Notes: generated from the sequence alone by a model not told the origin. Positions 34,224 to 40,492 are shown, numbered from the stretch's first letter. The stretch is DNA of 42,883 nt from Escherichia phage LLS (PQ299149), one strand, 5' to 3'. Made by a program: numbers and translations.

Positions 34224-35067
34224 ATTAACGGGTTACGTTTGGGACGCTTGTGCCGCTTCTGGCATGAAGCTGTCCAGCGTTGCCATCATGGCGCGTCTGG
34301 CAGACTTCAGCAGTGATGAAGGGGTTAGCTGGCCTTCCATCGCTACCATCGCGCGCCAGATTGGTGCAGGTGAGAGCACGGTTCGAACAGCCATATCTCA
34401 ACTGGAAAAAGACGGGTGGTTAACCCGCCAGCAGCGCCGTAAAGGCAACCGCAATGCATCGAACGTTTACCAGCTCAATGTTGCGAAATTACAGGCTGCT
34501 GCCTTTTCTCACCTGTCAGATTCTGACGCATCAAAATCTGATGCCTCAAAAACCGACGCGTCAAAATCTGAGGCATCAAAAAACGATGAAAAAGGCGGTT
34601 TTCACCCGTCAGAATCTGGGGGGGATCCGTCAGTAAATACAACTACTGATCCATCAGTTAAAAAACCTTCTTGTCCGGTTGCGCCGCAACCAGACCCTGA
34701 AGTGATGATCACCGATAACGCCATCCTGGTTCTGAATCATCTGAACCTGGTTAGTGGCTCACGATACCAAAAATCAAAAACTTCTCTGGAAAACATCCGT
34801 GCTCGTTTGCGTGAAGGTTACACCGTTGGCGACTTACAGCTGGTGATTGACCTTAAGCATGAGCACTGGAACGGCAATGACGTGCAGTACCAGTACATGC
34901 GCCCTGAAACGCTATTTGGCCCGAAAAAGTTTGAGGGTTATCTGCAAAGCGGGATCCGTTGGGACAAGAAGGGGCGTCCACCGCGTGAAAGCTGGGGTGA
35001 GAAGAAACACGATCCGATGAAGTTCGGCCCCGTTGATACCAAGATTCCAGAGGGGTTTAGAGGATGA
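34213..35067 (+). CDS. Replication initiation protein (O-like, winged-helix N-terminus, conserved phage C-terminal domain)
   Basis: 284 aa; winged-helix-like N-terminus; central (D/E)ASK(S/T)D pentapeptide repeats encoded by iterons; C-terminal region typical of phage replisome organisers. Confidence 0.65.
   Translation: MSTKLTGYVWDACAASGMKLSSVAIMARLADFSSDEGVSWPSIATIARQIGAGESTVRTAISQLEKDGWLTRQQRRKGNRNASNVYQLNVAKLQAAAFSHLSDSDASKSDASKTDASKSEASKNDEKGGFHPSESGGDPSVNTTTDPSVKKPSCPVAPQPDPEVMITDNAILVLNHLNLVSGSRYQKSKTSLENIRARLREGYTVGDLQLVIDLKHEHWNGNDVQYQYMRPETLFGPKKFEGYLQSGIRWDKKGRPPRESWGEKKHDPMKFGPVDTKIPEGFRG
34514..34620 (+). repeat. Origin-like iteron array inside the replication initiator gene
   Basis: Four 15-bp direct repeats starting 34531, 34546, 34561, 34576 (TCAAAATCTGATGCC / TCAAAAACCGACGCG / TCAAAATCTGAGGCA / TCAAAAAACGATGAA), flanked by inverted CAGATTCTG (34516) and CAGAATCTG (34608), then an A-rich stretch. 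Confidence 0.6.
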
Positions 35068-35951
35068 TTGAAAATAAATACTGCCGCGCACTGGCTGAAC
35101 TCCGTTCAAAACCAGCGCATGAATTGAAAGAGGTTGGCGATCAGTGGCGCACTCCAGATCTACTGTTTTGGGGCATCAATTCGATATTTGGCCCGATGGT
35201 TCTGGATCTGTTTGCAGATGATAGCAATGCTAAATGCCCTGCATGGTATACCGCCGAAGATAACGCGCTGACGCAGGACTGGTCAGAACGTCTAGCAGAA
35301 CTCGGTGGCGCCGCGTTTGCTAACCCGCCATACAGCCGTTCTCAGTACCATGAAAAGCAGGCCATTACTGGCATGACCCACATCATGAATCACACAATGG
35401 CGATGCGTGATAAAGGCGGTCGTTACATATACCTCGTGAAGTCAGCCACAAGTGAAACATGGTGGCCGGAAGATGCCGATCACATCATGTTTATTCGTGG
35501 TCGTATTGGGTTCGATCTTCCTGTTTGGTTTGTTCCCGCTGACGAGAAGCAGCAACCCACCAGCGCATTTTTTGCCGGGGCAATCGCTGTCTTTGACAAA
35601 ACCTGGCGTGGTGAAAGCTTCAGCTATATCAATCGCACCGAACTGGAAGAAAAAGGGCGTGCTGCATTGTCATTGGCTCAATTCGCCGCGGCAAAAATGG
35701 CCCTTCCGTCGGTGCCGGAAAAAACAATGCCTACTCCCATTGCAACGCCTGATGCAGAGTCGCGCATCTGGCCGCTGGAGGTTGGTCTGGTATTCAATCA
35801 GGTCGAGGGGGCGGATTCTCTAGGGGTGAACCAACAGAACAAGTTGAAGGCCAACATCAACCAACTCTGGCTGGAGCGCGTGCCTACCAGCGAAATAATT
35901 AGCGTGGCTGGTGGTCTGGTTAACAGCATGCAGGGGGCCGTCAATGCGTGA
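35064..35951 (+). CDS. Phage Dam-like DNA N6-adenine methyltransferase
   Basis: 295 aa with catalytic NPPY (FANPPYSRS); start overlaps upstream stop. Confidence 0.65.
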   Translation: MIENKYCRALAELRSKPAHELKEVGDQWRTPDLLFWGINSIFGPMVLDLFADDSNAKCPAWYTAEDNALTQDWSERLAELGGAAFANPPYSRSQYHEKQAITGMTHIMNHTMAMRDKGGRYIYLVKSATSETWWPEDADHIMFIRGRIGFDLPVWFVPADEKQQPTSAFFAGAIAVFDKTWRGESFSYINRTELEEKGRAALSLAQFAAAKMALPSVPEKTMPTPIATPDAESRIWPLEVGLVFNQVEGADSLGVNQQNKLKANINQLWLERVPTSEIISVAGGLVNSMQGAVNA

Positions 35952-36054
35952 AATTATCGTTGATAACTATGCTGGTGGCGCTGGTAGAGGCAAATCTTTC
36001 TGAATTATGTGCAAATCAAAAGGCGGGTGCAGCCGCCTGATATGGAGAAATAGC

Positions 36055-36747
36055 ATGAATCAGTTAACCGCAAAGGGTGTTGTGACAATGTCCAGCCGTG
36101 AAATTGCCAGGCTGGTGCAGAGCAAACATGGTGATGTGAAGCGCTCAGCTGAGCGCCTTGCATCTGCTGGTATTTTAACCGCGCCGTTGGCGCACACCCC
36201 CTACACACACCCGCAAAACGGGCAAACCTACGAGGAGTATTGGTTCAACAAACGTGATTCTCTGGTGATCGTCGCCAGGCTGTCGCCAGAATTTACCGCC
36301 GCTGTTGTCGATCGCTGGCAAGAGCTGGAGAACAGTCAGGCCGTAAGTGTCCCGCAAACATTGCCGGAGGCATTACGTCTCGCCGCGGATCTGGCCGAGC
36401 AGAAAGAACAACTGGCCCAGCAGTTAGCCGCTGCCGCGCCGAAAGTTGAGTTTGTCGATCGGTATTGTACTGCTAATGGCTCAATGTCTTTCCGCCAGGT
36501 GGCAAAGCTGTTGCAGGCCAAAGAGAACGATTTCCGCTTGTTCCTCATTGAGAGCGACATTATGTACCGGCTCGGCGGAGTGCTGACACCGCGGCACCAG
36601 CACATTGCCGCCGGGCGGTTTGAAGTTAAAACTGGCACTTCGAGCGAAACTAACTACGCCTTTAGCCAGGCACGTTTTACACCCAAAGGCATCGAGTGGA
36701 TCGGTGGCCTGTGGACGGCACACATCGCTAAGGGGCATGCCGCGTGA
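36055..36747 (+). CDS. Rha-family regulator with KilAC/Ant C-terminal domain (antirepressor-like)
   Basis: ATG at 36055; N-terminus GVVTMSSREIARLVQSKHGDVKRSAERL typical of Rha; C-terminal half resembles Ant/KilAC. Confidence 0.65.
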   Translation: MNQLTAKGVVTMSSREIARLVQSKHGDVKRSAERLASAGILTAPLAHTPYTHPQNGQTYEEYWFNKRDSLVIVARLSPEFTAAVVDRWQELENSQAVSVPQTLPEALRLAADLAEQKEQLAQQLAAAAPKVEFVDRYCTANGSMSFRQVAKLLQAKENDFRLFLIESDIMYRLGGVLTPRHQHIAAGRFEVKTGTSSETNYAFSQARFTPKGIEWIGGLWTAHIAKGHAA

Positions 36748-39273: not shown

Positions 39274-39314
39274 TAAACACTCCTCAACCATGAGGTGTTC
39301 TTGCTGTGAAATGG

Positions 39315-39346
39315 GCGGCTGGTGGGTGTTGTCGCACCCAACCAGC
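39315..39346 (+). other. Long GC-rich stem-loop downstream of the moron
   Basis: GGCTGGTGGGTG-TTGTCG-CACCCAACCAGCC, 12-bp stem with one bulge, no U tract. Confidence 0.35.
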
Positions 39347-39439
39347 CATTAGCTCATGCTTTCAGGTCACAAGCTAACCAAGGCCCACTGCTTTAGCGCA
39401 AAAGCATTGTGAGCCTATCAGAGTTACGCTTACGGATCT

Positions 39440-40492
39440 ATGAAAAATACTGTAAATATGAACAGTGTTGAGCTTATCAACGCTGACTGCCTGCATTACC
39501 TCGCAACCCTCCCAGATAACACCATTGACCTTATTGTTACGGATCCGCCTTACTTTAAGGTGAAGCCGAACGGCTGGGATAATCAGTGGAACGGTGACGC
39601 CGACTATCTTCGCTGGCTTGATATGTGTCTTGCCGAGTTCTGGCGAGTGCTGAAGCCTGCCGGTAGCCTGTATATGTTTTCAGGCCACCGACTTGCATCC
39701 GATATTGAGATCATGATGCGTGAACGCTTCAACGTCATGAACCACATTATCTGGGCGAAACCAGCGGGACCTTGGAAGGGATGCAACAAGGAAAGTCTTC
39801 GCTCTTACTTCCCCGCAACGGAACGCATCCTTTTCGCTGAGCACTATCAGGGGCCATATAAGCCGAAAAGCGACGGGTTTGCTGAGAAAAGCAACGAGGT
39901 CAAACAGCACGTCATGGCTCCGTTAATCACCTACTTTCGAGATGCAAGAGCCGAACTGGGTGTCTCGTCCAGGCAGATAGCTGACGCCACCGGAAAGAAA
40001 AATATGGCGTCTCACTGGTTCGGTACCAGTCAGTGGCAACTACCAAACGAGCAGGATTACGAAAAGCTGCAGGAATTGTTCACTCAGATCGCCATTGAGA
40101 AGCACCGCGCCTCTGAACTCGAAGCACCGCATCACCAGCTGGTGGCCACATGGCATTCGTTGAACCGGAAATACCTTGATCTGCTGGAAGAGTACAAATC
40201 TCTTCGGCGGCATTTCTCTGTGACAGTAACCGTGCCCTATACAGACGTCTGGACACATAAACCCGTCCAGTTCTATCCAGGCAAACACCCGTGCGAAAAG
40301 CCCGCTGATATGTTGCGGCAAATCATCAACGCCAGCAGCAGGCCCGGCGATGTGGTAGCTGATTTCTTTATGGGCTCGGGATCAACTGTTAAAGCAGCCA
40401 TTGAACTGGACCGCCAGGCTATCGGCGTAGAACTGGAAGAGGAACGTTTCAACCAGACGGTAAGTGAGGTAAGGCAGCTGGCAGGGGAATAA
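39440..40492 (+). CDS. Beta-class DNA methyltransferase (N6-adenine or N4-cytosine)
   Basis: 350 aa; N-terminal motif IV VTDPPYF and C-terminal SAM motif DFFMGSGST (order IV-TRD-I). Confidence 0.75.
   Translation: MKNTVNMNSVELINADCLHYLATLPDNTIDLIVTDPPYFKVKPNGWDNQWNGDADYLRWLDMCLAEFWRVLKPAGSLYMFSGHRLASDIEIMMRERFNVMNHIIWAKPAGPWKGCNKESLRSYFPATERILFAEHYQGPYKPKSDGFAEKSNEVKQHVMAPLITYFRDARAELGVSSRQIADATGKKNMASHWFGTSQWQLPNEQDYEKLQELFTQIAIEKHRASELEAPHHQLVATWHSLNRKYLDLLEEYKSLRRHFSVTVTVPYTDVWTHKPVQFYPGKHPCEKPADMLRQIINASSRPGDVVADFFMGSGSTVKAAIELDRQAIGVELEEERFNQTVSEVRQLAGE

Follow-up and report, generated by a model that had tools for sequence, protein, structure and literature searches.

The 42,883-nucleotide sequence of Escherichia phage LLS (PQ299149; analyzed over its full length and called the window here), which appears to be the complete genome of a lambda-like temperate phage, encodes two orphan DNA adenine methyltransferases of different families: M1 (positions 35064-35951) in the early-right operon and M2 (39440-40492) in the late operon. 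We consider it likely that these two unrelated enzymes, both typical of the early/late modules of SfV-like phages, carry out a two-stage self-methylation of the phage DNA. An initial annotation of this DNA had proposed a Dam-like enzyme and a beta-class enzyme which together would provide layered anti-restriction and possibly epigenetic control of phage promoters at a cluster of GATC sites (20007-20047). Our analysis retains both genes and the anti-restriction reading, refines the identity of the two enzymes and leaves control through the GATC cluster unsupported.

Results

M2 is an ortholog of M.EcoGII

M2 (39440-40492, plus strand; 350 residues) is an intact open reading frame with the annotated motifs in place: DPPY near the N-terminus (motif IV, aa 35-38, 39542-39553) and an FxGxG sequence, FMGSG, at the C-terminus (motif I, aa 310-314, 40367-40381). 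Between them lies the counterpart of the four-helix target-recognition domain of M.EcoGII (aa 160-237, 39917-40150; limits from PMC11551740), which gives the order of a beta-class enzyme: N-terminal DPPY, central recognition domain, C-terminal FxGxG. The protein matched the Pfam family PF01555 (N6_N4_Mtase) with 147.3 bits (cut-off 26.7) at profile positions 1-219 of 221. The assignment to the beta class was right; the orthology to M.EcoGII and the probable sequence-independence of M2 had been missed.

Aligned with M.EcoGII, whose sequence was machine-read from the PDF of Table S1 of the SUPREM paper so that a few letters may be wrong, M2 is collinear over the full length with 259 of 348 residues identical (74%), 86% similar and two single-residue gaps. 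The N-terminal catalytic lobe is 79% identical and the recognition domain 71.8%, the latter without insertions or deletions. M2 is 82% identical to the reconstructed ancestor Anc291, 72% to SUPREM/Anc284 and 77% to the phiP27 methylase; its nearest named relative is an E. cloacae protein (93%). With a dN/dS of 0.055 against its ortholog in the phage Eeyore, M2 is under strong purifying selection.

M.EcoGII is a 349-residue beta-class prophage enzyme that methylates adenine in any sequence context (PMC5778455). For the reconstructed ancestors methylation of DNA and RNA was measured, and SUPREM was described as non-site-specific (PMC11551740). Relaxed specificity was reported for OS31_p25 of a Serratia phage (67% identical to the phiP27 methylase and encoded beside the lysis cassette; PMC7556043) and, as cited in the same paper, for ARM81ld_p56 of an Aeromonas phage. 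Given the identity to M.EcoGII, including the recognition domain, together with the properties of the ancestors and of the relatives with relaxed specificity, M2 is very probably a sequence-independent adenine methylase.

M2 could alternatively be a sequence-specific beta-class methylase guarding a single site, like M.RsrI, CcrM, YhdJ or M.BceJIV. The solved relatives retrieved from the PDB by sequence (M.RsrI, CcrM and MboIIA) are indeed site-specific, and small changes in a recognition domain can alter specificity (PMC6602927). However, their matches to M2 are confined to the catalytic lobes (aa 9-132 and 270-345) and leave out the central domain, which is 72% identical to that of M.EcoGII without indels, and tested members of the M.EcoGII family down to about 58-67% identity, as well as the ancestors, were reported to be non-specific or relaxed. 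A site-specific M2 is therefore very unlikely. We regard it as highly improbable that RNA is the biologically relevant substrate of these enzymes, instead of or besides DNA. M.EcoGII does methylate RNA and DNA:RNA hybrids in vitro (PMC5778455), and another prophage 'Dam-like' enzyme, of the MT-A70 family and similar to M.EcoGV, acts as a methylase on 16S rRNA and requires a partner subunit (PMC10810198); yet the initial rate of M.EcoGII is about 100-fold lower on RNA than on DNA (0.12 versus 11.12; SUPREM Table S3, PMC11551740), the rRNA methylase comes from a different family, and no partner-like gene is conserved beside M1 or M2.

M1 belongs to the phage Dam family PF05869

M1 (35064-35951, plus strand; 295 residues) is likewise intact and carries NPPY at aa 87-90 (catalytic motif IV, 35322-35333), as annotated. 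Inactivation by mutation, named beforehand as an observation that would speak against the proposal, was found in neither gene. A single Pfam family was matched, PF05869 ('Dam'), with 152.6 bits against a cut-off of 28.1; in NCBIfam, the equivalog TIGR01712 ('phage N-6-adenine-methyltransferase') scored 209.2 bits (cut-off 97.05). Proteins 100% identical to M1, bearing the same name, occur in members of the Enterobacter cloacae complex, among them E. hormaechei and E. kobei. The Dam proteins of the phages SfV, VT2, T1 and HP1 and PamA from S. aureus all match PF05869 as well. M1 is 73% identical to SfV Dam across aa 2-212 and 21-34% identical to the other four (34% for PamA), and residues D26, W28, T30, P31, L47, D48, N55 and N87-P-P-Y-S91 are invariant in an alignment with the Dam proteins of SfV, VT2-Sa (orf32), T1 and HP1. 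In M1 the motif I-like LDLF at aa 47 precedes NPPY, the opposite of the order in M2, in keeping with the claim that the two methylases are of different classes (PF05869 versus PF01555).

The label 'Dam-like' holds for the name and for the probable GATC target of M1; it does not hold for the family, which is PF05869 and not the alpha-class PF02086 of the Dam enzymes of E. coli and T4 and of DpnM. M1 is thus unrelated to E. coli Dam, and a Dam by name and probable target only. Several other affiliations were considered for M1 and rejected. A classical alpha-class Dam (PF02086, with DPPY after a central recognition domain) does not agree with PF05869 as the only Pfam match, and the layout of the non-specific alpha-class type represented by Hia5 and M.HaeV, with DPPY near residue 194, is absent from both M1 and M2. 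M.EcoGII is a beta-class enzyme and hence belongs to the family of M2, Hia5 is an alpha-class enzyme (PMC3299994) and no PF05869 relative, and M.EcoGV, which had come into question as a tested relative, is encoded near int and belongs to the MT-A70 family.

The target of M1 was read from its relatives VT2 Dam, PamA and the Dam proteins of T1, HP1 and SfV. The primary papers on T1 and HP1 Dam reportedly describe GATC methylation, and Allison et al. (2002; J Bacteriol 184:1974) reportedly confirmed by experiment that SfV orf-41 encodes a Dam methylase. GATC methylation was reported for VT2 Dam, PamA rendered the DNA of S. aureus sensitive to DpnI, as expected of a GATC methylase (PMC12435837), and T1 and HP1 Dam are among the phage 'Dam-like' genes for which PMC7556043 lists citations. 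Judging by this company, M1 is probably specific for GATC.

A proline/threonine-rich linker (approximately aa 213-231), missing in SfV Dam, joins the core of M1 to a C-terminal domain of about 64 residues (aa 232-295, 35757-35948) without counterpart in the SfV, T1, HP1 and VT2 Dam proteins. This domain is the only part of M1 that AlphaFold2 (AF2) modeled with confidence, as three helices with a pLDDT of 75-90 in two runs (single sequence and 19-sequence alignment); the catalytic core stayed below 50 throughout in both, and a PDB sequence search with M1 and with a five-sequence family profile returned no match. The C-terminal domain has no match in Pfam. It is confined to a subset of the M1 lineage, recurring on the Eeyore ortholog (where it is 86% identical) and in ST64B, phiNP and Klebsiella phages, and at the same place E. 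coli relatives with a core about 70% identical to that of M1 carry apparent fusions to LexA_DNA_bind (PF01726), PerC (PF06069) or ASH (PF10554) modules. The domain could confer another specificity, tether M1 to the replication machinery, a possibility raised by the probable translational coupling of its gene to the initiator gene described below, or act as a methylation-linked regulator. The reading in which M1 is no plain GATC Dam and the C-terminal domain retargets or regulates the PF05869 core, so that the two enzymes would work as a pair and not as independent shields, seems quite unlikely.

The two genes lie in separate operons

Downstream of cI the genes follow in the order cro-like, cII-like, replication gene, M1, Ant, DUF968/HNH, Q, M2, holin and endolysin, which agrees with the annotated early-right placement of M1 and the late placement of M2 between Q and the lysis genes. 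The ATG of M1 overlaps the TGA stop of the replication initiator gene (34213-35067, plus strand; HTH_36 and Phg_2220_C domains) in an ATGA arrangement (GGATGATT); this overlap makes M1 an early-right gene that is probably translationally coupled to replication.

Late gene expression is expected to depend on the antiterminator Q (37806-38519, plus strand; PF06323). Promoters and terminators were scanned for in 32000-42883. Directly after Q lies an intrinsic terminator resembling tR' (38613-38632), and a terminator is annotated at the corresponding position of SfV. A second, stronger hairpin (40499-40516), 6 nucleotides past the M2 stop codon and before the class II holin of the P21 S type (40563-40778, plus strand) that starts the lysis cassette, forms a strong intrinsic terminator at the position of the one annotated after SfV orf48. 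Neither M2 nor the region after Q yielded a consensus promoter in the scan; a weak candidate late promoter pR' (TTGCAA-17-GATATT, 38550-38578), below the scan threshold, was read manually. From this layout of terminators M2 is predicted to be transcribed jointly with the lysis genes and solely by polymerase that Q has modified. The terminators flanking M2 are consistent with silence in the lysogen, and by analogy the dependence on Q would fit the properties reported for M.EcoGII, which is silent in the lysogen and deleterious when expressed constitutively (PMC5778455). Between Q and M2 lies an open reading frame of 201 codons (38668-39273, plus strand; phrog_18859) that is low in GC, encodes one predicted membrane helix and occupies a slot for variable cargo. 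It had no match in Pfam, PADLOC or NCBIfam. Related contigs have it called at 201 residues as well, and its real start is probably at 38668, since the start of the longest reading frame (38611) overlaps the terminator hairpin.

The overlap of M1 with the initiator gene bears on another explanation, namely that M1 mainly serves the DNA metabolism of the phage and provides full GATC methylation of newly replicated DNA for replication initiation, packaging or escape from mismatch repair. Four ori-like iterons of 15 bp (TCTGACGCATCAAAA, 34522-34581) lie inside the replication gene, where they encode its SDASK repeat, and three GATCs (34624-34710) follow within 130 bp; this arrangement is suggestive of a Dam-sensitive origin region. 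Virion DNA of lambda and P22 is under-methylated by host Dam because replication outruns the enzyme. Packaging of P1 needs Dam methylation at pac (PMC12707154). On the other hand, three GATCs in 85 bp are a mild enrichment only, the replication module occurs in SfIV and other close relatives with no methylase beside it, so that the enzyme is dispensable, and the C5 cytosine methylase found in the same slot in Eeyore fits a collection of anti-restriction genes better. DNA metabolism as the main role of M1 is rather unlikely, and protection of the phage DNA remains our preferred reading.

Neighboring genes rejected as restriction partners

In agreement with the annotated orphan status, nothing resembling a restriction enzyme adjoins either methylase. 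Searches of the non-structural open reading frames of the window (early, late and low-GC accessory regions) with Pfam, PHROGs, PADLOC and NCBIfam found no restriction-like nuclease, and the 'MTase_II' labels given by PADLOC here denote the type of methylase only. By these searches neither M1 nor M2 has a cognate endonuclease beside it, as a Type II restriction-modification system would.

The sole nuclease-like neighbor is a DUF968/HNH protein of the YdfU/PdcB family (36744-37805, plus strand; Pfam and PHROGs), which PHROGs labels 'HNH endonuclease'. The idea that M1 or M2 belongs to an unrecognized restriction-modification or toxin-like pair, with this protein or the product of the 201-codon membrane reading frame as the nuclease, has in its favor that DUF968 contains an HNH-like motif and is encoded upstream of Q in all nine M.EcoGII-type contexts inspected, and that the 201-codon reading frame is unannotated. 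Against it, DUF968 is kept in SfIV, which has neither methylase, and this would be unexpected of a restriction enzyme dependent on M1 or M2; moreover, the protein has no match in PADLOC, and DUF968 is present in 174 phage records, those of P1 (PdcB) and of Vibrio phages among them. The reading frame between Q and M2 is replaced by unrelated cargo elsewhere while M2 persists, and a non-specific methylase cannot define the specificity of a restriction system. Both candidates were rejected as hidden partners, and we regard such a pair as barely credible.

The pair in related phages

M1 and M2 form a conserved and previously sequenced module and are no peculiarity of this phage. SfV has the replication gene, dam (orf41) and, further downstream, a DUF968/HNH gene (orf45), Q, a terminator, orf47, a PF01555 methylase (orf48), a second terminator and the lysis genes S-R-Rz. 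Both genes also occur together in cdtI, mEp460, PhiR40_1, Stx2c phages and phiNP. All eight distinct contexts that encode exactly M1 have a PF01555 gene for 333-350 residues directly upstream of the holin gene, with a Q of either of two families (PF06323 or PF06530). What lies between Q and the methylase varies and includes the 201-codon membrane reading frame, a reading frame of 109 codons, an SDH_protease/NfeD gene and reverse-strand reading frames. In an E. coli prophage, a cluster representative of the M.EcoGII type (93% identical to M.EcoGII) has a lambda-type Q (PF03589) on one side and stx on the other. Because the same pair is found in the same places in SfV and in many E. coli prophages, the finding is real but ordinary.

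Eeyore is the closest sequenced phage relative, and the two domains that its M1 ortholog shares with M1 are 84% and 86% identical. Directly after this ortholog Eeyore encodes a C5 cytosine methylase of 645 residues (PF00145; 4573-6510 of its locus), which indicates that the slot behind the replication gene collects methylases.

SfV dam (7615-8268 of its locus), Eeyore CDS0032 (3246-4580), Chi gp52 and others carry the public label 'phosphoadenosine phosphosulfate reductase'. Its source is phrog_33262, a profile that spans 495 positions but is matched only in its Dam part (positions 283-492). When checked, the proteins of SfV and Eeyore matched PF05869 and nothing else; the reductase label on these methylases is a propagated mis-annotation.

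GATC content of the phage genome

The window contains 192 GATCs, compared with 167 expected from base composition and 218 from a Markov model, and shows no clear avoidance or enrichment of this site. Methylation of GATC alone would reach at most 384 of 20,799 adenines (1.85%). The cluster at 20007-20047, proposed as a site of epigenetic control, is real (sites at 20010, 20028 and 20041), but its density is not above chance: given 192 GATCs in 42,883 bp, two triplets within 35 bp were observed versus 2.0 expected, and six within 60 bp versus 5.6. The cluster sits in a region of 126 bp (19940-20065) upstream of a side tail-fiber gene (20066-21367). The same region contains a perfect 10-bp palindrome (AGCGATCAAT/ATTGATCGCT) that includes two of the three GATCs. 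The intergenic region is probably a regulatory site, with 95% column identity among four phages versus 85-88% in its flanks. All three GATCs are retained in Eeyore, CharmingMan and HK639, a conservation that is unspecific since the whole intergenic region is about 95% conserved.

These observations bear on the suggestion that regulation and not protection is the main job of M1, perhaps also of M2, with GATC methylation tuning promoters of the phage, such as one at the tail-fiber cluster, or genes of the lysogenic host. PamA, a 141-residue PF05869 enzyme of the S. aureus prophage mPhi11, rewires host transcription (PMC12435837), the PF05869 core is joined to DNA-binding or regulatory modules (LexA_DNA_bind, PerC, ASH) in the E. 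coli relatives, and the three GATCs lie with the palindrome in a conserved region. Yet the density of the cluster equals the chance expectation, for which reason epigenetic control through it is unsupported, and no consensus promoter was identified by eye in the cluster region, the promoter scan having covered 32000-42883 only and not been run there. Host Dam is already present and would methylate the GATC sites in any case; M1, encoded in the repressed early-right operon, should be silent in the lysogen; and the effects of PamA required constitutive expression in vitro (PMC12435837). Regulation as the main function is unlikely in our judgment.

Palindromes depleted in the window are ACCGGT (one observed versus 13.9 expected, z -4.6), GCCGGC, GGCGCC and CCCGGG, and palindromic hexamers have a mean z of -1.4 when composed of G and C only (n=8) and of -0.4 when containing A or T (n=56). 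Depletion of the GC-only class would fit a phage that shields adenine-containing sites only; the sample is small and was not used as evidence. A similar palindrome bias is common in enterobacterial DNA.

Other features of the window

Profile annotation of the window places the terminase at 118-2720, followed by tail genes and an invertible tail-fiber segment; the structural proteins include a terminase of the lambda GpA type and a long tail protein resembling J. The integrase (27382-28557, minus strand) and cI (32359-32985, minus strand) are both present. The tail-fiber switch region (20066-23136) has an invertible layout of the Gin/Cin type: inverted repeats of 57 nucleotides (20566-20622 and 22459-22515, 82% complementary), the first inside the tail-fiber gene 20066-21367 (plus strand), carry a core (AAACCTCGGTTT) that we take to be gix-like, an opposed reading frame (21429-22505, minus strand) encodes an alternative fiber C-terminus, and a serine invertase gene with Resolvase and HTH_7 domains lies at 22579-23136 (plus strand). 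A low-GC island at about 24000-28500 (GC 0.41-0.43 versus 0.52 for the phage) contains genes for a helix-turn-helix protein (24836-25279) and an M78/ImmA-like peptidase (24296-24832), both on the minus strand, which match capH and capP in PADLOC, regulators of CBASS-type defense. This pair adjoins a Bro-N/Ant-like gene (25544-26305), a reading frame of 286 codons (26525-27385, phrog_7259) and the integrase gene.

Discussion

In the two-stage program that we favor, M1 would be made first, from the early-right operon and in translational coupling with the replication initiator, and would most likely methylate GATC on replicating phage DNA. Since M2 lies downstream of the pR'/tR' region, it would be transcribed only when Q allows readthrough of the terminators, together with the lysis genes, and would then, just ahead of packaging, methylate adenines in a way that depends little or not at all on the surrounding sequence. 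The DNA of the progeny would thereby reach the next host pre-protected against adenine-sensitive restriction systems, and the lysogen would be spared the toxic activity of M2. The layered anti-restriction put forward in the initial annotation is reasonable and in line with the accepted reading of such phage genes (PMC12707154).

Several points weigh against this interpretation. M1 is just 21-34% identical to the GATC enzymes with documented tests, and AF2 gave no usable model of its catalytic core. Enterobacter has a Dam of its own, so that protection by a further GATC enzyme would be redundant. The weak candidate pR' comes from manual reading of the sequence. In the literature on M.EcoGII-type enzymes we found no direct demonstration of virion methylation in vivo or of better plating on restricting hosts, and the protective role of M.EcoGII was offered as a suggestion (PMC5778455). 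DpnI/MboI assays cannot tell GATC-specific from relaxed enzymes, and the role of phage Dam enzymes was described as 'still not well understood' (PMC7556043).

The families, positions and likely roles of both enzymes are already in the literature. The closest known systems for M2 are M.EcoGII and M.EcoGI from prophages of E. coli O104:H4 C227-11 (Murray et al., 2018; PMC5778455), which resemble it in length (349 versus 350 residues) and beta-class layout; M.EcoGII is also prophage-borne and has no restriction partner, and a gene of the M.EcoGII type likewise lies just downstream of Q. M2 differs from M.EcoGII in 26% of its residues, some of them in segments reported as fully conserved at the dimer interface (aa 97-110 and 116-140), its Q is of the PF06323 type whereas that of the Stx prophage is PF03589, and the host here is Enterobacter. 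OS31_p25 and ARM81ld_p56 resemble M2 as beta-class orphans of temperate phages with relaxed adenine specificity (PMC7556043), but stem from more distant hosts and sequences and were assayed by restriction protection only. Mom of Mu and the enzymes Hia5, Hin1523 and Nma1821 of Mu-like prophages (PMC3299994) are functional analogs of M2: late, tightly controlled, toxic to the host and broad in their adenine modification, which shields phage DNA against many restriction enzymes. As proteins they are unrelated to M2, Mom having an acyltransferase fold and Hia5 being an alpha-class enzyme (DPPY at about residue 194) related to Dam/DpnM, and their control is by Com and not by Q.

For the pair as a whole the closest system is SfV (NC_003444), with the same gene order and proteins 73% (M1) and 79% (M2) identical. 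Its Dam has 217 residues and is devoid of the linker and the C-terminal helical domain of M1, the cargo between Q and the late methylase is different, and the structural genes appear different. Those of SfV presumably form an HK97-like head and a Mu-like tail, and the 2002 SfV paper of Allison et al. reportedly states that the phage encodes multiple methylases. The PF05869 Dam enzymes of other phages (T1, HP1, M.EcoVT2Dam, PamA) share with M1 the invariant DxWxTP, LD and NPPYS motifs, the orphan status and the reported GATC target; they differ as 'mini' enzymes of 141-237 residues that are 21-34% identical to M1, and they do not have the 10-residue insertion after NPPYS that is common to M1 and SfV Dam, to which M1 adds its C-terminal domain.

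Since annotations of both genes exist in hundreds of Enterobacter genomes, their presence carries little weight as a discovery. On the practical side, database labels mislead here, both the 'reductase' on relatives of SfV dam and the 'Dam' on M1. The locus is suited to asking what purpose a phage GATC methylase has in a host that bears Dam, and offers a clean natural system for studying hypermethylation of virion DNA by M.EcoGII-type enzymes in vivo and its effect on host range. If virion DNA is indeed hypermethylated, the phage may gain a broader host range but become exposed to Type IV nucleases that depend on m6A.

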